Part shown: in pieces, positions 8,134 to 53,529 of the stretch
Layout of the letters: the number at the start of each line of letters is the position of its first letter
Numbering within the stretch: the stretch's first letter is position 1
Source: Spirochaetota bacterium
GTDB taxonomy: Bacteria > Spirochaetota > UBA4802 > UBA5550
Length of the DNA: 64,000 nucleotides
Assembly (NCBI GenBank): GCA_963664815.2
Contig: CAXXHB010000003.1
Location: 2,016,001-2,080,000, forward strand
Reading direction: 5' to 3'
Notes under the pieces: model-generated
Databases searched by the model: none
Told to the model about the DNA's origin: nothing
What the model saw: only the letters and a program-made list of their open reading frames with translations
Program-made: the position numbers and the translations under genes

Positions 8134-9462
8134 ATGGATGCCGTATTACTTTCAAGAATACAATTTGCTATGACGGCAGGTTTTCACTTCATATTTCCGC
8201 CATTAACGCTGGGACTTGGTCTTATAATATTAATATACGAAACTCTTTATATCAGAACCAATAAAGAACAGTATATGAATATTGCAAAATTCATAATAAA
8301 GATTTTTGCCCTGATATTTGCAATTGGTGTTGCATCAGGTATTGTCCTGGAATTTTCTTTCGGGACAAACTGGTCTACTTATTCAAGAATGGTAGGTGAC
8401 ATATTCGGAGCCCCGCTTGCTGCAGAAGGAGTTCTTGCTTTTTTTCTTGAATCTGTTTTTATCGGAGTGCTGCTTTTCGGAAGAAATAAAGTTTCAAAAA
8501 GAGTTTACTGGCTGTCTGCATTTCTTGTTTTCTTCGGTTCGCACCTTTCAGGATTATGGATAATAATTGCAAATTCGTGGATGCAGACACCGGCAGGTTT
8601 TGTCATTGAAGGTGGACGTGCAGTCCTTAAAGATTTTTTTGCTGCAGCAGTGAATCATTCCACAATGCAGCGGTATTTACATACAATTATCGGCGGATGG
8701 CTTTCAGGTTCACTTTTCATGGCCGGTATAAGTTCATGGTATATTCTCAAAAAAAGAGATCTGGACTATGCCAGACCTATCCTGAAAGTCTCACTGATAG
8801 TTTTTATACTAACTTCCTTTCTTCAATTCGGAACAGGGCATATGCATGCGGTTCAGGTTGCAAAAACACAACCTGTAAAAATGGCGGCTATGGAAGGTTT
8901 ATGGGAATCAAAAACCGGAGCTGGACTTTCTGTTTATGGAATTCCCGATTCTTCAAAAAAGATAACTCACTTCGATATAAGAATTCCCAAGCTTCTCAGT
9001 ATTATGATCTATGCTGATCCGAAAGCAAAAATACAGGGATTGAACGATTTTTCAGAAGACCTTCATCCGCCGGTTTTCATCACATTTCAGGTTTACCACG
9101 CAATGATAGGAATGGGAAGCCTTTTTGCACTGATATCACTTATCGGACTTTTTCTTTTAATTAAGAAAAAACTATATGAAACAGACTGGTATCTTAAGGT
9201 TCTTTTGTTTGCAATACCGATTCCGCTTATTGCAAATGAAGTCGGGTGGATGACAGCAGAGATAGGCCGTCAGCCCTGGGCTGTTTATAACGTCCTTAAA
9301 ACAGCTGATGCTGCATCGGTGGTTGTACCAGCCTGGCAGATCCTGGCAACAATTATAATGTTCACAATACTTTATGCTGTACTTTTAATGTTTTTCATAA
9401 AGTTCCTTGTGGCTTTGATTAAAAAAGGACCTGAAAAGGTTATTGCCACTGAAGGTTATTAG
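8134..9462 (+). CDS. cydA: Cytochrome bd oxidase subunit I
   Basis: SRIQFAMTAGFHFIF, FGTNW, AFFLES, QPVKMAAMEG, GRQPW. Confidence 0.95.
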   Translation: MDAVLLSRIQFAMTAGFHFIFPPLTLGLGLIILIYETLYIRTNKEQYMNIAKFIIKIFALIFAIGVASGIVLEFSFGTNWSTYSRMVGDIFGAPLAAEGVLAFFLESVFIGVLLFGRNKVSKRVYWLSAFLVFFGSHLSGLWIIIANSWMQTPAGFVIEGGRAVLKDFFAAAVNHSTMQRYLHTIIGGWLSGSLFMAGISSWYILKKRDLDYARPILKVSLIVFILTSFLQFGTGHMHAVQVAKTQPVKMAAMEGLWESKTGAGLSVYGIPDSSKKITHFDIRIPKLLSIMIYADPKAKIQGLNDFSEDLHPPVFITFQVYHAMIGMGSLFALISLIGLFLLIKKKLYETDWYLKVLLFAIPIPLIANEVGWMTAEIGRQPWAVYNVLKTADAASVVVPAWQILATIIMFTILYAVLLMFFIKFLVALIKKGPEKVIATEGY

Positions 9463-9471
9463 GAGGATTAA

Positions 9472-10473
9472 ATGGATACACTGACATTTCTTCAGTTTAC
9501 ATGGTTTATTTTAATTGGTGTTCTTTTTGCAGGTTATGCTGTTCTTGACGGGTTTGACCTGGGTGTCGGTTCACTTCTGCCTTTCCTTGCAGGCAATGAT
9601 GAAAAAAAGACAGAGATTCTTTTCAAATCTATCGGTCCGGTGTGGGACGGGAACGAAGTTTGGCTTATTACTGCAGGGGGAGCATTATTTGCGGCTTTTC
9701 CCAATGCATATGCGACTGTTTTCAGCGGATTTTATCTTGCCCTTATGATTGTCCTCCTAGGGCTTATTTTGCGGGCTGTTTCAAACGAGTTTTTTATTCT
9801 TGAACATGATAATAAAGGTATATGGGCCAAAACTTTTTTTATCGGCAGTCTTGTACCATCAATTCTTTTCGGGGTTGCCCTTGGTAATGTAATAGTTGGA
9901 ATTCCTCTGGATGCAAAAATGGAATTTACAGGTACTTTCTTTACATTATTAAGACCATTCCCTCTTGCAATCGGATTACTTGGTTTATCTGCAATTCTTA
10001 TGCAGGGTGTAACATACACGTTATTAAAAACCGATGGAGAAATAAATGAAACAGCGTCATCTGTTTCGGGAAAAATCTACTATCTTTATGCGGTGATGTT
10101 TATAATCTCACTTGTTCTTTCATATGTTTTTATACCCGAGAGAATGAACATAATACCGGCATGGATTTCCGCCGCAGCTTTTACAGTTTCAATGGCAGCT
10201 TTAAGATTTTTTTTAATCCGGAAAAGTGAATTAAATGCGTTTCTTTCATCATCAATTGCATTTATATCTTTATGGGGAATTGCAGGTTCAGTACAATTTC
10301 CTGTACTGGTAAACTCAATAGACAGCAACTCACTCGATCTGACAGTTTATAATTCATCCTCAAGCGTACTTACTTTATCGGTAATGTTTGGTATAGCTCT
10401 GGTTGGTATGCCCATTGTAATCGCATATTCCGTATATGTTTACAGGGTTTTCAAAGGTAAAATAAATCAATAA
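9472..10473 (+). CDS. cydB: Cytochrome bd oxidase subunit II
   Basis: LDGFDLGVG, PVWDGNEVWL, GGALFAAFP. Confidence 0.95.
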   Translation: MDTLTFLQFTWFILIGVLFAGYAVLDGFDLGVGSLLPFLAGNDEKKTEILFKSIGPVWDGNEVWLITAGGALFAAFPNAYATVFSGFYLALMIVLLGLILRAVSNEFFILEHDNKGIWAKTFFIGSLVPSILFGVALGNVIVGIPLDAKMEFTGTFFTLLRPFPLAIGLLGLSAILMQGVTYTLLKTDGEINETASSVSGKIYYLYAVMFIISLVLSYVFIPERMNIIPAWISAAAFTVSMAALRFFLIRKSELNAFLSSSIAFISLWGIAGSVQFPVLVNSIDSNSLDLTVYNSSSSVLTLSVMFGIALVGMPIVIAYSVYVYRVFKGKINQ

Positions 10474-14413: not shown

Positions 14414-15775
14414 ATGAATAAACATTTCAATCTCATTGTAATAGGGGGAGACGGTGCGGGGATGGGTGCGGCATCACAGGCAAGGAGAATAAACAAGAAT
14501 ATGACTATCGCAGTATTTGAACGTGGTGAACACGTATCCTATGCCGCATGTGGAATGCCCTACTACATCTCAGATGATATAACAGATGTAAAATCACTTA
14601 TTGCCATAGATGTCGATGAGTTTATTAATAAAAAGAATATTTTAATAAACACACTTTCAGAAGTAACAGAAGTTGACTTTAATACAAAAACCATATCAGT
14701 CAAATTTGATGGTCATACTAATAATTACAATTATGACCGTTTAATAATTGCTACAGGAGCATCTGCATCAGTGCCCTTAATACCCGGAATAGAAAATAAA
14801 AATGTTTTCCTGCTCAGAACTTTGAGAAACGGTATTGATATAAAAAACTTTTTGGCAGGCAAAAAACCCGCCTCAGTTATACTGATAGGAGGTGGAGTTA
14901 TCAGCCTTGAGCTTGCTGAAACTTTTATTAAAAAAGACATCAAGGTAACTATACTTGAAAAAATGGATTCAATAGCTTCACTTACTTCTCCGGAAATACA
15001 GAAAATAATATTTGATACACTTATAGAAAAAGGTGCTGAAATAAAAACCGGGCTCAATATTGAAAGTATAGTTTCCGAAGCGGATAATCTTTCGGTAAAC
15101 ACAAGTTGCGGAAAATTCAGATCGGATTTTATTATTGTATCTACCGGTGCAAAGCCGAATACATCTCTGTTTATAAACTCGGATTTAAAAATCTCACCTC
15201 ATGGTGCCATAATAATCGATGAAAAATGCAGAACAAATATAGAAAACGTATTTGCTGCCGGAGACTGCTGCACAGTAAAAAATCTGATTACAGGTAAAGA
15301 CGATTATATACCGATAGCAACAACTGCCAACAAACAGGGAAGAGTTGCAGGTCTGCAGGCTGCTGATGTTAAAACTGAAATTTTCAAAGGGGCTATTGGT
15401 TCCCAGATGATTAAAATATTTGAGCTTGAAGTAGCTAAAACCGGATTCAACAAGGCAGATGCAGCAAAACATGGAATACCGGTAATTGAAGAGTTTATAG
15501 AATGGAAATCGAGAGCAGGCTATTACCCTGGATCTGATAAAATATTTGTAAAACTTACAGTTAGAGAAGACAACAGAAAGTTAATAGGTGGAGAAATAGC
15601 AGGGGTTGATGGTGCCGCGTTAAGGATTAATACAATTGCGGCTGCAATTACATCCGGTATGACCATTGAAGACTTTGCCTATCTTGATACAGGGTACTCG
15701 CCTCCGTTTTCACCAGTATGGGATCCTGTTGTCGCTGCCGCCCAGAATTTCATTAAACGCGTCCCTGTAATATGA
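14414..15775 (+). CDS. CoA-disulfide reductase / NADH oxidase family flavoprotein
   Basis: GGDGAG, SYAACGMPY (redox Cys), ATGA, FAAGDC, YSPPFSPVWD. Confidence 0.88.
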   Translation: MNKHFNLIVIGGDGAGMGAASQARRINKNMTIAVFERGEHVSYAACGMPYYISDDITDVKSLIAIDVDEFINKKNILINTLSEVTEVDFNTKTISVKFDGHTNNYNYDRLIIATGASASVPLIPGIENKNVFLLRTLRNGIDIKNFLAGKKPASVILIGGGVISLELAETFIKKDIKVTILEKMDSIASLTSPEIQKIIFDTLIEKGAEIKTGLNIESIVSEADNLSVNTSCGKFRSDFIIVSTGAKPNTSLFINSDLKISPHGAIIIDEKCRTNIENVFAAGDCCTVKNLITGKDDYIPIATTANKQGRVAGLQAADVKTEIFKGAIGSQMIKIFELEVAKTGFNKADAAKHGIPVIEEFIEWKSRAGYYPGSDKIFVKLTVREDNRKLIGGEIAGVDGAALRINTIAAAITSGMTIEDFAYLDTGYSPPFSPVWDPVVAAAQNFIKRVPVI

Positions 15776-35662: not shown

Positions 35663-35734
<72 letters not shown>

Positions 35735-35749
35735 GTATTCGGCCTCTTT

Positions 35750-35831
35750 TGCGAGCGAAGGGAGTCGAACCCCCACACCTTACGGTACCAGATCCTAAGT
35801 CTGGCGTGTCTGCCAGTTCCACCACGCTCGC
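35750..35831 (-). tRNA. tRNA-Leu(TAG), CCA not encoded
   Basis: GCGAGCGTGGTGGAACTGGCAGACACGCCAGACTTAGGATCTGG-long variable arm-GGGGGTTCGACTCCCTTCGCTCGCA. Confidence 0.97.
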
Positions 35832-46011: not shown

Positions 46012-46779
46012 TCATTTTTTAAAGTTCCATTCATCTGATAAGAATTTTCTGGAACATGATTCCATAATTATAGATTCAGTTTCAGACAGATTATCCATAC
46101 TGAAATCGATATTAAATGCTCCTGAAAAATCGTTTATCAGGCTTACAGTAAGATTATCAATAAACTTCTCGGTTATCTCCTCCCCGGTTTCCTTTTTTAT
46201 GGATGTTACAGTATCACAGGCTGAAGTGAATCCCCTGTCGTTTATTTTTTTTTCATCATGGATTAATGCGGAGGTTATCACATCGCTGTCAATGTCCATA
46301 ATAAGCGTTCCATGCTGCTGAAGTATCCCCCTTTTTCTCGCCTGTGCACTCCCTGAAATTTTTCTTTTATCAATGACAATATCGTTTACCGGCCTGTATT
46401 CAGCTTTAATTGAAAGCAGTCGCAGTGATTTTATTATGGGTGAAATTATAGCTCTGAACGAATCGTCTACAGATTCCGGAACAATACCCGATTTTACAGG
46501 CACGGTAAAACTGTATGTAAGTTCCATATGATGCATTACCGTACCGCCGCCTGTCTCCCTCCTGGTCACTGTAATTCCGTTCTTTTTACAGTAACACATG
46601 TTCACGCACTCAAGAATTTTCTGAAAATACCCGAGAGTGACAGATGCACGTTCCCAGCGGTATAAGCGTAGAGTCGGTAAAGAACCTGACATTGACAGTC
46701 CCTGCAGTATCGCATGATCCTTGGCCATGTTAACAGCGCTGTTAAGCGGTGGATCTATTATAAGTCTGAATCTGTTCAT
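46012..46779 (-). CDS. Lipoate-protein ligase / octanoyltransferase (LplA/LipM-like, catalytic domain only)
   Basis: NMAKD, RRETGGGTV.H, NDI...RKISGSAQ, QHGT. Confidence 0.85.
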   Translation of the reverse strand: MNRFRLIIDPPLNSAVNMAKDHAILQGLSMSGSLPTLRLYRWERASVTLGYFQKILECVNMCYCKKNGITVTRRETGGGTVMHHMELTYSFTVPVKSGIVPESVDDSFRAIISPIIKSLRLLSIKAEYRPVNDIVIDKRKISGSAQARKRGILQQHGTLIMDIDSDVITSALIHDEKKINDRGFTSACDTVTSIKKETGEEITEKFIDNLTVSLINDFSGAFNIDFSMDNLSETESIIMESCSRKFLSDEWNFKK

Positions 46780-46807
46780 TTTTTCATATACCTTTAACAG
46801 GATGATT

Positions 46808-47659
46808 TTAATTATGCCACACACAGGCAGCATGATATGAGCTTCTTACATTGGGTGCGCTTAAAACTTTTTCAAATCCCATACTTATACCCGTCTTTTC
46901 AATCTCATCGAATTCATCCGGGTGATAATACTTTTCCACTGAATAGCTGTTTCTGCCGGGACTAAGATATTGTCCCACTGTGAGAATTCTGCAACCTGAT
47001 TCTATAAGATCAGACATAGTAGAAGATATGTCATCAATGGTTTCTCCGAATCCGATCATAAGACCAGATTTAACCCTGAACCCGCAATCAGAAGCTGTTT
47101 TTATAAGGTTAAGCGATCTCCTGTAATCCCCTGAGGGCCTCAACAGCGGGAAGAAACATTCAACAGTCTCAATATTATGGTTGAGTATATCCGGCTCCGA
47201 TTCCCTTATAATATTTAACGAGCTCAGGCATGAATCTCTGAAATCCGGAACAAGCAGTTCAACACCGCAGCCGGGAACCCTTTCTTTTATTCTGTATGAC
47301 GTTTCAGCAAAATATGAAGCGCCTCCGTCAGATAGATCATCACGCGTAACAGAGGTTATAACAACGTATTTCAGACCGAGACGTGCAACGGCTTCACCGA
47401 TTCTTTGCGGCTCCATACTGTCCGGATAATCCGGTTTGCCGCTGTCCACCGCACAATACAGACAATGACGTGTACATTTATTGCCCAGTATCAGGAAAGT
47501 TGCTGTATTCTCTGAAAAACACTGCCCTGCATTTGGACACTTTGCCTCCGAACATATAGTATTCAGCTTCAGCTCACTTAAACATCTTTTAACATTCAGA
47601 TAACCGGGACCGCCCGGAGTTTTATACCTTATCCACCCGGGGATTCTTTTATCTGCCAT
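46808..47659 (-). CDS. lipA: Lipoyl synthase
   Basis: CSEAKCPNAGQC, CTRHCLYC, RSSY. Confidence 0.95.
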   Translation of the reverse strand: MADKRIPGWIRYKTPGGPGYLNVKRCLSELKLNTICSEAKCPNAGQCFSENTATFLILGNKCTRHCLYCAVDSGKPDYPDSMEPQRIGEAVARLGLKYVVITSVTRDDLSDGGASYFAETSYRIKERVPGCGVELLVPDFRDSCLSSLNIIRESEPDILNHNIETVECFFPLLRPSGDYRRSLNLIKTASDCGFRVKSGLMIGFGETIDDISSTMSDLIESGCRILTVGQYLSPGRNSYSVEKYYHPDEFDEIEKTGISMGFEKVLSAPNVRSSYHAACVWHN

Positions 47660-49085
47660 TATCCCATACCAGAACAGGTTTTTTAGCAGCCATTACCGTA
47701 TCAACTCTTTTTACAGAAGTATTATGAGGAGCCCCAAGCACAAGACCGGGATTTTCATCACACTCTTTCCTTATTTTTTTCATAGCGTCGATAAACCGGT
47801 TCAGCGACCGGAGTGTTTCTGTCTCTGTCGGTTCAATCATCATTGCACCATGTATCAGCAGAGGGAAGTAAACTGTCGGTGAATGAAATCCGTAATCAGC
47901 AATTCTTTTCCCTATATCATTGGTAGTAATACCCCCCGGAAGGTCCCGGTCGCTGACTACAAATTCATGCATACAACTTCTGTTAACCGGAATATGGTAA
48001 AATCCACGCAACTTCGACATAAGGTAGTTGGCATTAAGTACTGCTGTATCCGATACTTCACGAATACCATCATAACCGAGCATATTTATATAAACCCATG
48101 CCCTGAGACAGACTCCGAAATTCCCATGGAAAGCGTGAATCTTCCCTATTGAATCAGGCAGATCATATGCCATTATATATCCATTCTCTTTTTTCCTGAT
48201 AACTGGCACCGGAAGAAATGATACAAGATGACCGGCGACTCCAAGCGGACCGGAACCCGGACCGCCTCCGCCGTGAGGGGTGGAGAAGGTTTTGTGAAGA
48301 TTTATATGCATCAGGTCAAAACCCATATCATGGAAACGGACTCTCCCCACAGTTGCATTAAGGTTTGCGCCATCACCGTAAAATAATGAACCGTTTTTAT
48401 GCAGTGCATCACCTATTTTTAAAAGATTCCGGTCAAAAAGCCCGAGAGTATTCGGACTTGTAAGCATCATTGCAGCGACATTGCCATCAAGCGACTCCAT
48501 GAATTTTTCCAGATCAATATCGCCTTCGGCTGTAGATGGTATTTCACGGACTTTAAATCCGCACATGGCTACAGAGGCAGGATTGGTTCCGTGGGCGGAA
48601 TCCGGTATTAATATTGTATCTCTCTTTTCACCCTTACTTTCAAAATATTTTCTGATTATCATGACTCCTGTAAGTTCACCATGCGAACCGGCCGCAGGAG
48701 ATAAAGTAAATTCAGAAAAACCTGTTATAGCACATAAATATCCGGAAAGTTCATACATAATCTGAAGAGCTCCCTGTACCAGGTTTTCTTCCGACATGGG
48801 ATGAAGTGACGAGAAGCCTTTACTGCGCGCTATTCTTTCATTTATTTTAGGGTTGTACTTCATTGTGCAGCTTCCCAGAGGATACATCCCGTTATCCACT
48901 CCGAAATTCATTTTTGACAGGTTGTTGTAATGCCGCACAACTTCCGGCTCGCTACAATCGGGAAGGTCTGTATTATCCCGGAGATATTTTTCAGGTATAT
49001 TGCTGTAATCTTCCCCCACCCACGAAGGTAATCTGTAATGATTCTGACCCGGCGTACTCTTTTCAAATATCAGTTCCGTGTTCAT
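47649..49085 (-). CDS. gcvPB: Glycine dehydrogenase subunit 2
   Basis: PLGSCTMKYNP, SAHGTNPAS, LHKTFSTPHGGGGPG, IEPTE. Confidence 0.95.
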   Translation of the reverse strand: MNTELIFEKSTPGQNHYRLPSWVGEDYSNIPEKYLRDNTDLPDCSEPEVVRHYNNLSKMNFGVDNGMYPLGSCTMKYNPKINERIARSKGFSSLHPMSEENLVQGALQIMYELSGYLCAITGFSEFTLSPAAGSHGELTGVMIIRKYFESKGEKRDTILIPDSAHGTNPASVAMCGFKVREIPSTAEGDIDLEKFMESLDGNVAAMMLTSPNTLGLFDRNLLKIGDALHKNGSLFYGDGANLNATVGRVRFHDMGFDLMHINLHKTFSTPHGGGGPGSGPLGVAGHLVSFLPVPVIRKKENGYIMAYDLPDSIGKIHAFHGNFGVCLRAWVYINMLGYDGIREVSDTAVLNANYLMSKLRGFYHIPVNRSCMHEFVVSDRDLPGGITTNDIGKRIADYGFHSPTVYFPLLIHGAMMIEPTETETLRSLNRFIDAMKKIRKECDENPGLVLGAPHNTSVKRVDTVMAAKKPVLVWDNGR

Positions 49086-50413
49086 CTGCATCCCCCGATA
49101 ATCTCCGCATACTCATCAGCATCATCTTTTGAAATCATTTCTGTAGCGCATACAAGAAGACATCCTTCATATTCAGGGTAAAACCGTGAAATTTCAAGAC
49201 CTGGATTAATACCTCTTTTTATAAATTCATTCATTGCCATGCCGCTGTTTTCCGGTTGAATTATGAATTCATTGAAAAACGGTTTGTTGTCATGGAATGT
49301 TTTTATTCCTGATTCAATAAGCCTTCTGTGAAGATAGCATGCTGTTCTGTGATTTACCGAAGCGAGTTCTTTAAGCCTGACACCGATAAGGCTCAGAAAT
49401 ACCGCCGTTCTGAGAGCTATTAGTCCCTCATTTGTGCAGATATTTGATGTTGCTTTCCCGCGTCTGATATGCTGCTCCCTTGTCTGTAGTGTAAGCGTAT
49501 ATACCCTGCTCCCTTCCGAATCCACCGTCTGTCCGACGAGCCTTCCGGGAATTCTGCGAATAAACGCCTTCCCTGCAGATATATATCCGGCATATGGCCC
49601 TCCGAAATTCAGCGGATTCCCGAAGCTCTGAACCTCTCCGCAAACAACATCGGAACCCAGTTCTCCTGGCCCCTTAAGCATACCCAGGCTCATTGCCTCA
49701 ACAACAACCGTAATCATTATTGCACCGGATTCAACAGCTGTTTTGCTGAATGAATTTATATCCTCAATCAATCCGAAGAAGTTGGGCGACTGAATTATCA
49801 CTGCCGATGTATCTGAACCGGCAGCATTACAGCATGCTGAAATGTCAGTAATCCCGTCAGACATAGGCAGTTCCGCAACCCGGAAGCCGCATGCACGGGC
49901 GTATGTATCAAGGACATCCCTGTAATATGGATGTATCCCCCTGCTGACCAGGACTGTTTTCCTGTTATTTGTACGAACAGCCATCATCGCCGCCTCCGCC
50001 ATGGAAGTAGCGCCATCGTACATGCTGGCGTTTGTCAGATCCATCCCTGTCAGACGGCTCATCATTGTCTGAAATTCGAAAATGGCCCCGAGCGTCCCCT
50101 GGCTCACCTCCGGCTGATATGGCGTATAAGCGGTGTAGAACTCGGATCTTGATGAAATTTCATCAACAACAGGGGGAACATAATGATTATAGGCCCCCGC
50201 TCCGGTAAATGTTTTTGAAAACCGGATATTTTTATTTTCAATGAAAGAGGCGATTCTTTCTATACTGATTTCAGATGCCGGGAGAGGAAGGCCGTCAATA
50301 TTAGCAATCTGTATGCCGGCCGGAATGTCGCTGAACAGATCATCAACTGATAAAACCCCTATATCAGCAAGCATTCTGTTGATGTCAGCTTTTGATAACC
50401 CGGTAAAACTCAT
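49082..50413 (-). CDS. gcvPA: Glycine dehydrogenase subunit 1
   Basis: TAYTPYQPEVSQG, NASMYDG, QTREQHIRR.KATSNIC. Confidence 0.95.
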   Translation of the reverse strand: MSFTGLSKADINRMLADIGVLSVDDLFSDIPAGIQIANIDGLPLPASEISIERIASFIENKNIRFSKTFTGAGAYNHYVPPVVDEISSRSEFYTAYTPYQPEVSQGTLGAIFEFQTMMSRLTGMDLTNASMYDGATSMAEAAMMAVRTNNRKTVLVSRGIHPYYRDVLDTYARACGFRVAELPMSDGITDISACCNAAGSDTSAVIIQSPNFFGLIEDINSFSKTAVESGAIMITVVVEAMSLGMLKGPGELGSDVVCGEVQSFGNPLNFGGPYAGYISAGKAFIRRIPGRLVGQTVDSEGSRVYTLTLQTREQHIRRGKATSNICTNEGLIALRTAVFLSLIGVRLKELASVNHRTACYLHRRLIESGIKTFHDNKPFFNEFIIQPENSGMAMNEFIKRGINPGLEISRFYPEYEGCLLVCATEMISKDDADEYAEIIGGCR

Positions 50414-50414
50414 C

Positions 50415-50828
50415 TCATTCACCATCTTTAATAAGTTTAAGATAATCCGCCGGTTTTAAGAGTTTATCAATCCCCTTTTTGTCAGTAAGCTCAAGTCTGA
50501 ACAGCCATCCGTCACCATATGGATCTTTATTGATAATTTCGGGTGTATCTTCCACATCACGGTTTACTGTAACCACTTTACCCTTTAATGGAGAATATAC
50601 GTCAGATGCGGCTTTTGGAGACTCGATAATTACCACAGGTTCACCCTGTTCCACAACCGATTGTACAATATTAGCAATAAATTCAACAAAAACAATATCT
50701 CCAAGCGCATTCTGCGCGTGATCCGTTATACCGCATACACCATGCATTTCATCAATAATTCTGATCCATTCATGTTCCTCAGTGTATAATAAATCTTCAG
50801 GTACCTTCATCCCCTTTTCTTTTGTCAT
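50415..50828 (-). CDS. gcvH: Glycine cleavage H protein
   Basis: YTEEHEW, GITDHAQ.LGDIVF, ESPKAASDVYSP, INKDPYGDGW; GGAGG RBS. Confidence 0.95.
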   Translation of the reverse strand: MTKEKGMKVPEDLLYTEEHEWIRIIDEMHGVCGITDHAQNALGDIVFVEFIANIVQSVVEQGEPVVIIESPKAASDVYSPLKGKVVTVNRDVEDTPEIINKDPYGDGWLFRLELTDKKGIDKLLKPADYLKLIKDGE

Positions 50829-50908
50829 TTATATACCTCCGGTTTAAACTGTCATTTTTTCGATTTCATCCGCCGGTCACGGAACATAGTGGAGACGGAC
50901 TTTAAAAT

Positions 50909-50937
50909 ATTATACTTTTACTAAAAAATTATTTCAA
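50909..50937 (-). promoter_or_regulatory. Internal sigma70-type promoter upstream of gcvH
   Basis: TTGAAA-N17-TATAAT overlapping the gcvT stop. Confidence 0.55.
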
Positions 50938-52040
50938 GTATCCATTGAAGCATGGCGGCTATTAAATTTATAAAACGGTTTTTCGACAATTCTGCCGTCT
51001 ACTCTCTTATCACGGATTATAACCTGAACGGTATCACCGACGGAAACGGAACCTCTCAAAGCCCTTAACAGCGCCAGACCTTTCCTGAATGTCGGGGAGT
51101 ATATTCCGCTTGTCAATGTACCTATCTCATTATTTCTGAATAATACTTTGTATCCTTCATGAAGAACACCCTTACCGGTAAGCTCAAGACAGTACTGCCC
51201 GTATTCCGCTCCCGTTTTTTTTAACTCTTCCAGAGCAGGCTTACCAACATAAGGAAGGTCGGAGCTTATCAGCCATGAAAGCCCGGCTTCGAATGGATTT
51301 ATATTCTCATTGATTTCATGCCCGTAGAGCGGGTAACATGATTCCAGCCTCAGGGTATCTCTGGCACCCAGGCCCGCCGGTTTTATACCAATTCCGGCCC
51401 CCTCCAGCATCAACCTTTCCCAGAGTAATTCTGCCTTTGAATTCTCTATGAAGAGCTCATATCCCTGTTCACCGGTGTAGCCTGTATTTGAAATCATGAT
51501 TTCTGAACCATTAAACTCATCGAAGTAAAACCTGAATCGCGGCAGGTTATCGATACCTTCTTTACGGAATATTTTACTCAATACCTGCGAAGATAGCGGC
51601 CCCTGAATATCAATTTTAGAAGTGGAATCCGATATGTTTTTTATTTCTGTTTTTTCAATAAGATGTTCTTTCATCCATGCAAAATCTTTTTCAATGGTTG
51701 AAGCATTCACTACAAGGTAGTAGCTGCTATTTTCTATCTTAAAGATAAACAGATCATCTATCACCCCTCCGTTTTCGAGGCAGAAGAGAGTGTACATACC
51801 CATGCCGGAAACCAGTTTTGACATAGATGTAGGTATCAGGCTGGAAAGATAAAGTGCCGCATTTTCACCCTTTACGGTAAACTCACCCATATGCGAAACA
51901 TCAAAGATTCCCGCTGAATTTCTGACAGCTTCATGTTCATCAAGTATCGACTTGTACTGAACCGGCATTGAGAAGCCGGCGAAATCGACCATACGTCCGC
52001 CATATCTGAGATGCATATTATACAGAGATGTTTTTTTCAT
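50934..52040 (-). CDS. gcvT: Aminomethyltransferase (glycine cleavage T)
   Basis: FDVSHMG, GGVIDD, TGYTGE.G.E, GLGARDTLRLE. Confidence 0.95.
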   Translation of the reverse strand: MKKTSLYNMHLRYGGRMVDFAGFSMPVQYKSILDEHEAVRNSAGIFDVSHMGEFTVKGENAALYLSSLIPTSMSKLVSGMGMYTLFCLENGGVIDDLFIFKIENSSYYLVVNASTIEKDFAWMKEHLIEKTEIKNISDSTSKIDIQGPLSSQVLSKIFRKEGIDNLPRFRFYFDEFNGSEIMISNTGYTGEQGYELFIENSKAELLWERLMLEGAGIGIKPAGLGARDTLRLESCYPLYGHEINENINPFEAGLSWLISSDLPYVGKPALEELKKTGAEYGQYCLELTGKGVLHEGYKVLFRNNEIGTLTSGIYSPTFRKGLALLRALRGSVSVGDTVQVIIRDKRVDGRIVEKPFYKFNSRHASMDT

Positions 52041-53371
52041 CTTCTGTTCATCCTCCTCAGGCCGAAATCTGCAGCACGGAGAAGCGGATCATAGACTTCG
52101 CTCACGGAAGGGACATAGGCCATTTCAGTTCTCCACAATTCATCAAGTGTAATGCCGAACTCAATGGCCATGCTTATTAAATTGATCCTCTCTGCCGCAC
52201 CCCTCTCCCCTGCGCACTGGGCCCCCAGTATGATCCCCGAATTTTTATCAAAAATTATTTTTACCGTAATTTCGCAGTTATCTGGATAATATTCCGGCCT
52301 TATCCTGGATGTTATCTTACCTGCAGCCGGTTCAAACCCCTTTGCGGCGGAAAGTGCAGTGTTAAAACCTGTTCCGGCTATTTCAAAACTCCCGATCCTT
52401 GTAACAAATGTTCCGGTACTTCCCCTGTATTTTTCATTTCCACCCATAACATTAATTGCCGCTACGGTTCCCTGCTTGTATGCCGAGGTTGCAAGTTTTG
52501 AAGTTACCGGTTTCCCGTCAATAGATGAGTAATTCATTATACAGTCCCCCGCCGCATATACATCCTTTACCGAGGTCATCAGCATTTCGTCAGTTTTTAT
52601 TCCTGATGATGTTGTTTCAATAGATGAATTAATTGCGAGAGATAATTCAGGCCTGAATCCCGCTGCAATAACTGCCATATCTGCCGGAATCTGAATATCG
52701 CGGCAGATAACCTGCCTGAGATATTCACCGCCATCAAAAGATAAAACAGCCTTCTCTTTTAAAACACTGATTCCCGTTTTTTCAAGATGATTCTCAACGA
52801 GTGCCGCAATATCGGGATCAAGAATGCTCTTGAAAATCTGATTCTCAGTTTCAACAATTGTAGTTTTTTTTCCATGACAATGCAGTGCATATGCAGTTTC
52901 CAGACCTATTGCGCCCCCCCCTATAATGATAATATTACGCGCAGTTTTCATCCTTTCCATTATAAAAGAGAGATCACGCAAGCCGGCAAAGGTAAATACG
53001 GAGAGGTTCATGTACCTGTCAAGATTGGAAAGAGGCGGAATAAAAGGGATACAGCCGGTTGCAATAATCAGCTTATCGTAGTGTTCAGTTTTAATACCTT
53101 CAGAGGTTGATACTGTTATTGTTTTCTCATCATGGTTAATTTTTTCCACTTTACCTCTTATTTTAACCGCCCCCTGTTTCTGAAGATTCAGATCAAGAAC
53201 AAGGTTTTCAGCTTTTACTATACCCTCAAGGGCATAAGGGAGTCCGCAGGGATGAAAAAGGTCATTTTCTTTAGGATCAATAATTCTTACATCAGCCTTC
53301 GGGTTATTTCTCTTGATTGTTATAGCAGCAGCATAACCGGCAGATCCGAAACCACATATTACAATTCTCAT
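52037..53371 (-). CDS. NADH oxidase / CoA-disulfide reductase family flavoprotein
   Basis: GFGSAG, HPCGLPY single redox Cys, GGGAIGLE, YAAGDC, YVPSVSEVYDPL; ATGA overlap with gcvT. Confidence 0.85.
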   Translation of the reverse strand: MRIVICGFGSAGYAAAITIKRNNPKADVRIIDPKENDLFHPCGLPYALEGIVKAENLVLDLNLQKQGAVKIRGKVEKINHDEKTITVSTSEGIKTEHYDKLIIATGCIPFIPPLSNLDRYMNLSVFTFAGLRDLSFIMERMKTARNIIIIGGGAIGLETAYALHCHGKKTTIVETENQIFKSILDPDIAALVENHLEKTGISVLKEKAVLSFDGGEYLRQVICRDIQIPADMAVIAAGFRPELSLAINSSIETTSSGIKTDEMLMTSVKDVYAAGDCIMNYSSIDGKPVTSKLATSAYKQGTVAAINVMGGNEKYRGSTGTFVTRIGSFEIAGTGFNTALSAAKGFEPAAGKITSRIRPEYYPDNCEITVKIIFDKNSGIILGAQCAGERGAAERINLISMAIEFGITLDELWRTEMAYVPSVSEVYDPLLRAADFGLRRMNRR

Positions 53372-53529
53372 AAAAACCCCGAAACTGTTATATTTGATGA
53401 CTGCTGCTATAATAATATAACATGGCGGAATTTTCAATTGCCGGAAACTTTTTTATTTTGCTGTTTTTAATGTTTTTTAAAAGGATTTTAATCAGAGCAT
53501 AGGTGGGTTTTATTTAAATTTATCATTAT

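Follow-up and report, generated by a model that had tools for sequence, protein, structure and literature searches.

The glycine cleavage system consists of four fixed parts and forms the core of the reductive glycine pathway for one-carbon (C1) assimilation. Glycine cleavage leaves the carrier protein GcvH in its dihydrolipoyl form, the lipoyl synthase LipA also delivers the dithiol form, and the P protein needs the disulfide form; the lipoamide/nicotinamide adenine dinucleotide (NAD) couple lies near equilibrium. The L protein is typically a class-I dihydrolipoyl dehydrogenase (LpdA or E3; family TIGR01350), and in Mycobacterium tuberculosis a class-I Lpd also serves the lipoyl-protein antioxidant system Lpd-DlaT-AhpD-AhpC. 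The glycine decarboxylase of Eubacterium acidaminophilum is instead served by a thioredoxin reductase (TrxR)-like 'atypically small lipoamide dehydrogenase', a member of the low-Mr TrxR family with a CxxC motif, which passes electrons to thioredoxin and glycine reductase and whose gene is not known to lie within the gcv operon. This enzyme is to our knowledge the only precedent for an L protein outside class I. Here, we analyse a 64,000-nucleotide stretch of DNA from a Spirochaetota bacterium (assembly GCA_963664815.2, contig CAXXHB010000003.1, positions 2,016,001 to 2,080,000; hereafter the window), in which a single-cysteine flavoprotein of the NADH oxidase (Nox)/coenzyme A disulfide reductase (CoADR) group opens an operon for glycine cleavage and protein lipoylation. 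We propose with moderate confidence, from comparative sequence evidence, that this flavoprotein is a dedicated NAD(H):lipoyl-GcvH oxidoreductase, a predicted non-orthologous L protein from the single-cysteine Nox/CoADR branch. The glycine cleavage system itself is known; what the locus suggests as new is that its L component can be drawn from another branch of the flavoprotein disulfide reductases.

The seven tightly packed genes of the operon run on the minus strand from 53371 to 46012, in the order flavoprotein-gcvT-gcvH-gcvPA-gcvPB-lipA-ligase according to Pfam and NCBIfam calls. The flavoprotein gene (52037-53371, 444 amino acids, ATG at 53371) is followed by gcvT for the aminomethyltransferase (50934-52040; TIGR00528, 357 bits), gcvH for the lipoyl carrier (50415-50828; 132.7 bits), gcvPA and gcvPB for glycine dehydrogenase subunits 1 and 2 (49082-50425, 544 bits; 47649-49091, 699 bits), lipA for the radical S-adenosylmethionine (SAM) enzyme lipoyl synthase (46808-47659; 355 bits) and a gene for an LplA/LipM-type lipoate/octanoyl ligase or transferase comprising the catalytic domain only (46012-46833; PF21948, 9.8e-46). 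The lipoyl-lysine of GcvH, K72 in the motif ESPKAAS, is invariant in all 19 orthologs aligned. The flavoprotein TGA and the gcvT ATG share the sequence ATGA, and a GGAGG stands ahead of the gcvT ATG within the flavoprotein gene; the remaining junctions are overlaps of 10-26 nt, with the exception of a 105-nt gap between gcvT and gcvH. Co-transcription and translational coupling of the flavoprotein gene with gcvT are very likely.

The linkage is conserved throughout the window's order. In a sample of 301 genomes of the phylum, flavoprotein matches of at least 278 bits are confined to this order, the full-length ones scoring at least 375 bits at 43-55% identity, and the next-best matches across the phylum stay at paralog level (at most 228 bits and at most 35% identity). 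Immediately downstream of the flavoprotein lies gcvT at all 25 strong-match loci, and none of the four paralog-level loci adjoins gcv genes. Among all 122 genomes searched in the order, 66 carry an ortholog (E<=1e-70), the window's own genome (G000) included. In 59 of these 66, gcvT follows the ortholog directly on the same strand, at a distance of 3-115 nt measured between the matches (3 or 6 nt in 39 of the 59), and G331 shows the first 33 GcvT residues before its contig ends, which brings the total to 60/66. In two further genomes, G322 and G323, both of family f56, the ortholog lies next to gcvH, and in the other four (G350, G335, G324 and G348) the locus is broken by a contig end. Because the arrangement recurs in 60/66 ortholog-bearing genomes, it is far beyond chance, and a Spirochaetota metagenome-assembled genome locus (L065) has the identical seven-gene order. 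G322 has the order AsnC regulator-flavoprotein-GcvH-GcvPA-GcvPB-LipA, with LplA on the opposite strand, and G323 (L069, C13, 6956-10131) has flavoprotein-GcvH-HD_3 domain protein-LipA only. No gcvT (at 1e-50) and no gcvP were found in G323, which is 96% complete, so that by gene content its locus amounts to a lipoyl-GcvH module uncoupled from glycine cleavage. These two arrangements indicate that the lipoyl carrier and its synthase are the partners never lost. An L component should be encoded and conserved with T, H and P, as the flavoprotein is (60/66, plus the 2/66 beside gcvH), and the proposed flavoprotein-type L variant seems widespread within one spirochaete order at least.

The window's genome offers no orthodox candidate for the L step. 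In G000 (5.2 Mb, 3 contigs, 96.2% complete) there is no lpdA in the window, and a whole-genome search returned zero matches over the TIGR01350 cut-off. The top one of 17 weaker matches is the operon flavoprotein itself, and none of the 17 spans the full model, each covering either position ~100 onward or the first 36-77 positions. The catalytic domain PF00198 of the E2 acyltransferases was not found in G000 either, so GcvH, encoded by the operon copy and an orphan gene at C3:1934822-1935184, is the sole lipoyl-protein type found there. G000 also encodes three more Nox/CoADR paralogs, which reach 354-500 bits on the CoADR model against 300 for the operon flavoprotein, and two of them have C-terminal extensions that align with rhodanese-bearing relatives; since all three outscore the flavoprotein, generic CoADR/Nox roles are already covered. 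A 453-residue Nox/CoADR paralog (31% identity; TIGR03385, 417 bits) lies in the window at 14414-15775 on the plus strand, with no gcv genes around it.

Across the order, the flavoprotein and LpdA tend towards a complementary distribution. We used a generous definition of 'LpdA-like', a full-length TIGR01350 match of at least 190 bits, and still 36 of the 66 bearer genomes are without a full-length class-I homolog. In 13/28 bearer genera no sampled genome has an LpdA-like gene, and these include the genus of G092, a single contig that is 98% complete. The TIGR01350 cut-off itself is passed in 10/122 genomes, and six of these ten genes adjoin an E2 gene (E2 is found in 8/122 genomes); G345, G322 and G150 have such an E2-E3 pair yet keep the flavoprotein in the gcv operon. 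Conversely, the flavoprotein is present in 27 of the 32 gcvT-bearing genera, and four of the other five have an LpdA or LpdA-like gene. Genera g129 and g138 have an LpdA over the cut-off at another place in the genome, as g6 does an LpdA-like gene of 381 bits, and in 15/16 genomes of g4 an LpdA-like gene follows gcvT ~5 kb further down the same strand. Genus g4 is the only one whose gcv operon lacks the flavoprotein yet has a CxxxxC LpdA-like gene at its 3' end. In its member G360 (L067, C2, 1963-9436) the order is gcvT-gcvH-gcvPA-gcvPB-lplA-lipA-LpdA-like, with lplA before lipA, the reverse of the window; the LpdA-like protein (431 amino acids) has TIGR01350 as its best family at 380.8 bits (cut-off 408.8) and CLGEGC at the aligned place. 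Like the flavoprotein, the g4 gene is thus housed in a gcv-lipA-lplA operon, at the 3' rather than the 5' end. A separate metagenome locus (L157, 3216-6451) likewise pairs a flavoprotein with lipA: the product of its class-I LpdA-like gene has 33% identity to that of g4, and the gene lies 1.1 kb upstream of lipA. The earlier, sequence-only reading of the window had described the gene order, the tight packing and the ATGA overlap, and all seven genes were found in place; it had noted that lpdA is missing, which the genome search bears out at the stated completeness. The co-occurrence and the presence in lpdA-less genomes that it asked for are likewise seen, in that the flavoprotein clade is tied to gcv genes or gcvH in 62/66 (the other four being contig ends) and 36/66 bearers have no full-length class-I homolog. 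Its proposal of a non-orthologous L protein therefore has all three comparative checks (no lpdA or E2, linkage, L-less bearers) in its favour. Its other suggestion, a dedicated NADH sink that may support the reductive glycine direction, is speculative.

The flavoprotein shares the fold of class-I LpdA and is proposed to do the same job, and its best relatives are the single-cysteine enzymes. Its Pfam domains are Pyr_redox_2 (PF07992, 1.8e-50), Pyr_redox (PF00070) and Pyr_redox_dim (PF02852), that is, the flavin adenine dinucleotide (FAD) and NAD(P) Rossmann domains plus the dimerisation domain that a class-I dihydrolipoyl dehydrogenase requires. The best NCBIfam matches, CoADR TIGR03385 (299.9 bits, cut-off 578.8) and NF007123 (279.3 bits, cut-off 458), both stay below their cut-offs, as do the Streptococcus-type Nox/NADH oxidase model NF046103 (221.9 bits, cut-off 600) and Lipoamide_DH TIGR01350 (141.9 bits, cut-off 408.8). 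The last of these matches covers model positions 102-448, and since it begins at position 102 the CxxxxC region is unmatched. Among solved structures, the single-cysteine CoADRs, persulfide and polysulfide reductases and Nox enzymes (3kd9/4fx9, 6pfz, 8a56, 3cgb of B. anthracis and 1joa, which is Npx) match at E values from 2e-58 to ~1e-43, the closest being Archaeoglobus fulgidus NoxA-3 (6pfz, 2e-58), the coenzyme A (CoA)-persulfide reductase 8a56 and the Pyrococcus CoADRs 3kd9/4fx9; class-I E3 structures match at just ~1e-14 to 1e-15. A protein cluster search gave generic CoADR/Nox clusters only, and was set aside as not discriminating.

As in CoADR and Nox, the flavoprotein has a single cysteine in an xxC(G/A)xPY helix and a conserved tyrosine in an A-Y-x-P motif, and its length is the same. 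The sequence HPCGLPY occupies residues 40-46, and the active-site Cys42 is invariant in 45/45 orthologs. With cysteines at positions 6, 42, 107, 165, 223, 277, 366 and 386 there is no C-x4-C pair, in agreement with the sequence-only reading of a single-cysteine centre lacking the CxxxxC disulfide of class-I LpdA. The flavoprotein also has a tyrosine where class I has its catalytic histidine, a comparison that is alignment-based and tentative: the C-terminal motif of the ortholog clade is Y419-x-P-x-x-S424-E425, with Tyr and not His at the base position, and the class-I His-Glu dyad lies in an H-P-x-x-S-E type motif. In the g4 LpdA-like protein, the Glu aligned with E425 in one MAFFT run but not in a larger one, and we dropped the idea of E425 as a remnant of the dyad because the match depends on the alignment. 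Compared with CoADR and Nox, in turn, the flavoprotein falls below every curated cut-off, has signature motifs of its own, lacks a rhodanese domain and sits among gcv and lipoyl genes.

The ortholog clade is well delimited, with 62 invariant positions among 45 orthologs (66 in a 26-sequence alignment, A1) and the motifs G[FL]GSAG, DPK, HPCGLPY, KLATSAYKQG and ELAYCPAVSEV. Clade-specific residues include G9-S10, D32, K34, H40-P41, the KLATSAYKQG block, F322, T324, P359, N397, S400, E425 and R439-R440. Also invariant among orthologs is E174, with which the beta-2 strand of the NAD fold ends; by the usual Rossmann-fold rule it suggests a preference for NAD(H) rather than NADP(H). A cysteine that CoADR and Nox lack, Cys420 (codon at window ~52112-52114), stands beside the family-wide Tyr419 in 40/45 orthologs, and most of the subfamily at large shares it. 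The five sequences of the window's genus alone have Val or Ala at residue 420, so a Cys42-Cys420' disulfide is not the general mechanism; in other lineages Cys420 may pair with Cys42 across subunits in a disulfide. The loop after the active-site helix has 15 residues in 46/46 clade members and 14-16 across the rest of the subfamily, and is ~7 residues longer in 56 other Nox/CoADR sequences (median 22, range 16-25). In the Pyrococcus CoADR this stretch contains Y65-Y66-P67, and in the alignment with that enzyme the deletion takes out Y66 and P67, Leu replaces Y65, and Glu360 takes the place of H367. Replacing Y65, Y66, P67 and H367 widened the substrate channel of Pyrococcus CoADR (PMC6026696). 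We counted three of these four channel-narrowing residues as changed in the flavoprotein (Y66 and P67 deleted, H367 as Glu), from which we infer a more open channel, suited to a protein-borne lipoyl-lysine arm.

How could a single-cysteine enzyme act on the lipoyl arm? The missing step would be the NAD(H)-linked interconversion of GcvH dithiol and disulfide, for which the flavoprotein would be the only gene travelling with GcvH. Dihydrolipoyl-GcvH, once P and T have acted, would be reoxidised at the flavoprotein, as would the dithiol product of LipA, and the shorter loop would open a channel for the lipoyl-lysine arm. A lipoyl thiolate may attack either an adduct of Cys42 with the flavin C4a or a mixed disulfide of Cys42 with bound CoA. 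Where Cys420 is present, as in most orthologs, the copy from the second subunit may be a partner or relay; bound CoA is an alternative relay. The product would be Cys42-S-S-lipoyl, from which the second lipoyl thiol would close the dithiolane and free the Cys42 thiolate, and FADH- would hand its electrons to NAD+; glycine synthesis would use the same steps in reverse. A single-cysteine enzyme would suffice because the substrate supplies the second thiol, in a mixed disulfide as CoA forms in CoADR.

Relatives of the flavoprotein reach beyond the order. A scan of metagenome contigs with alignment A1 gave 80 loci. L078 (55% identity) again has the order flavoprotein-gcvT-H-PA-PB, and L079 (65%) breaks off inside the gene. 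At 34% identity, L083 and L129 show a rearranged order, GcvH-LipA-flavoprotein-GcvPA-GcvPB, and homologs 55-99% identical to the L083 protein are labelled Deltaproteobacteria bacterium, Thermodesulfobacteriota bacterium and, in one case, Nanoarchaeota, so that the proposed flavoprotein-type L variant is probably present also in a metagenomic clade labelled Thermodesulfobacteriota. Two loci at 39% identity lie beside lipoylation genes: L084 has ferredoxin-type protein-radical SAM-flavoprotein-LipA-unknown-LplA, and L090 has flavoprotein-RNase T-LipA-unknown-LplA. In a FastTree phylogeny, 46 orthologs and 12 metagenome relatives (including L083, L129, L084 and L090) form one 58-member subfamily (local support 1.0 for an inner set of 50 sequences, 0.857 for 57). 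It is separate from 56 other CoADR/Nox sequences, and for 55 of these no gcv or lipoyl context was seen; the lone exception, L134, has a LipA gene 2.8 kb away. Archaeal relatives were seen at 37-41% identity. Most Thermococcus have GcvH without E2 (PMC3904984). A wider interpretation, which we put forward tentatively and regard as possible but doubtful, is that the subfamily marked by (H/S)PCGxP(Y/F)...ELAYCP constitutes a second, ancient lipoyl-protein oxidoreductase, the L protein of anaerobes in which GcvH is the only lipoyl protein. Its members, spanning Spirochaetota, the clade labelled Thermodesulfobacteriota and possibly archaeal relatives, would be short-loop enzymes with a single cysteine or a Cys42/Cys420' pair, using a substrate-assisted mixed disulfide instead of CxxxxC.

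Several observations weigh against an L-protein role. In our literature search, no single-cysteine Nox/CoADR enzyme was described as a lipoamide dehydrogenase or L protein, and none of the Nox/CoADR type was connected with GcvH or the L step. A full-length class-I homolog that might serve as L is present in 30/66 bearer genomes, which is an upper bound for a real alternative, as the 190-bit definition is over-inclusive. In G374, of the window's genus, the LpdA-like match is a PRK06370-type FAD-containing oxidoreductase (465 bits) beside ABC-transporter genes, and it is absent in G000. G000 itself encodes a cut-off-passing thioredoxin reductase (TrxB) and two TrxR-like proteins as possible acceptors. 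G328 (genus g150, 70% complete) has gcvT-H-PA-PB-lipA-lplA with neither flavoprotein type found and stands as an unexplained exception. The g4 operon is a distant xenolog whose GcvT is just 34% identical to that of the window, and it therefore represents a whole-operon alternative rather than a clean one-gene swap. Eight of the 12 non-ortholog subfamily members (L080-L082 and L085-L089; 33-38% identity) have no gcv or lipoyl genes in their available flanks, three of the eight being on contigs of at most 3.2 kb. Finally, LipA accompanies the flavoprotein just as constantly as GcvH does, so that on gene context alone an L role and one linked to LipA look alike.

The best-surviving alternative, which we nevertheless judge unlikely, is that the chemistry is as proposed but runs in the opposite direction, with the flavoprotein as an NADH-dependent lipoyl-GcvH reductase that either keeps GcvH in the dithiol state as an antioxidant or redox relay, or drives reductive glycine synthesis, and not as an oxidising catabolic L protein. 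Members of the family normally reduce disulfides and persulfides with NAD(P)H (PMC6026696). The G323 module, which keeps flavoprotein-GcvH-HD-LipA where no gcvT or gcvP was found, would fit this direction, as would the second, orphan GcvH of G000, the formate-tetrahydrofolate (THF) ligase present in that genome, and the lack of a glycine riboswitch, a feature that would have pointed to a catabolic gcv operon. Lipoylated GcvH-like proteins guard Staphylococcus aureus against oxidants (PMC12440151). Both the M. tuberculosis system and this S. aureus GcvH-L system pair a flavoprotein with a lipoylated carrier outside classical catabolism, resembling the G323 module. In contrast to the spirochaete locus, these systems use class-I Lpd or have no defined reductase, and here no AhpD, AhpC, macrodomain or sirtuin genes accompany the flavoprotein. 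There is likewise no peroxiredoxin or AhpD-like gene in the operon, and the gene is joined into a full T/H/P operon in 60/66 genomes. The glycine reductase protein GrdA (PF04723) gave no match in G000, but the control genomes were silent too. The reaction is reversible, which makes its direction a question of flux and not of enzyme identity; as formate-THF ligase is present, either direction of glycine flux is conceivable.

We consider it improbable that the flavoprotein is an ordinary CoA-disulfide or persulfide reductase, or an O2-scavenging NADH oxidase, co-transcribed so as to guard the O2-sensitive LipA and the dithiol arm, while the L function comes from TrxR/thioredoxin or another flavoprotein. 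This is what its top family and PDB matches (CoADR, CoA-persulfide reductase and Nox) would say of it, and G000 supplies both TrxB with two TrxR-like proteins and a cytochrome bd that suggests microoxic exposure; the TrxR-like enzyme of E. acidaminophilum is a further point in its favour. However, the scores lie far under the CoADR and Nox cut-offs and three paralogs of G000 score higher, and a protective enzyme would not be expected to follow GcvH through three gene orders and two phyla. Nor would its absence be expected anywhere special, yet it is missing exactly where the gcv operon carries an LpdA-like gene (g4). Slightly less probable still is that the flavoprotein serves lipoyl synthase by supplying electrons, or by handling sulfur or persulfide, for regeneration of the LipA auxiliary cluster: LipA does occur in every context seen (main operon, G322, G323, L083, L129, L084 and L090), L084 and L090 have LipA and LplA neighbours without GcvH in their flanks and L084 has ferredoxin-type and radical-SAM genes upstream, but in the main clade the flavoprotein is at the operon end opposite lipA and translationally coupled to gcvT, its invariant thiol fits disulfide chemistry better than electron transfer to an Fe-S protein, and its positional analogue in g4 is an LpdA-type enzyme.

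Several further features of the locus concern its boundaries and the lipoylation machinery. The operon is bordered by an acyltransferase-3 gene (Acyl_transf_3) upstream and a metallo-beta-lactamase-fold gene downstream. In the 158-nt gap between the acyltransferase-3 gene and the flavoprotein ATG, a promoter-like TTGAAA-17-TATTAT (53409-53437, minus strand; 10/12 consensus matches) stands 38 nt before the ATG; the promoter scan gave 19 sites against 20.8 expected, a chance-level result, so this site counts as a consensus match only. We rejected the promoter and terminator scans as evidence, since their counts are at chance level, and used them solely for start codon placement. No glycine riboswitch was found in the window at Rfam gathering scores, the only matches being two neighbouring tRNA genes at 35663-35831 on the minus strand (RF00005, 69.3 and 52.9 bits). 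The product of the last operon gene (46012-46833, ~255-273 amino acids) scores 145 bits on TIGR00545, below the cut-off of 280, and its true start may be an internal Met at ~46779. This gene adjoins lipA and encodes an LplA/LipB catalytic domain only; its product could act as a LipM-like octanoyltransferase in the de novo lipoylation of GcvH and not as a lipoate-salvage ligase.

The orphan gcvH of G000 (L068, 6784-7212, plus strand) scores 127.9 bits on TIGR00527, is 51% identical to the operon GcvH and directly follows the gene of a 952-residue tetratricopeptide repeat (TPR) protein. In G100, genes for a 943-residue TPR protein and a dehydroquinase precede gcvT. Given these TPR neighbours, the orphan may be left over from an older gcv locus, or else serve as a distinct lipoyl carrier. 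Elsewhere in the window, cytochrome bd subunit I is encoded at 8134-9462 (plus strand; PF01654, 534.9 bits), with a likely subunit II at 9472-10473 (plus strand). With a cytochrome bd, no haem-copper oxidase found in G000 and no E2, the gene content suggests an organism that is a microaerotolerant anaerobe, or anaerobic to microaerotolerant in its habits.

In conclusion, if the flavoprotein acts as the L protein, the poorly understood single-cysteine CoADR/Nox group would gain a defined protein substrate, and the enzyme would provide a small L module for engineering, possibly more O2-tolerant or NADH-specific. Should the wider subfamily interpretation hold as well, many 'NADH oxidase' and 'CoADR' genes of anaerobes would be misannotated, and reconstructions of glycine cleavage or the reductive glycine pathway that were called incomplete for want of lpdA would be wrong. 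Already for the bearers sampled here, 36/66 of which otherwise look L-less, an L role of the flavoprotein would put right how genome and metagenome annotation scores pathway completeness, and it would explain how anaerobes without lpdA run glycine cleavage.

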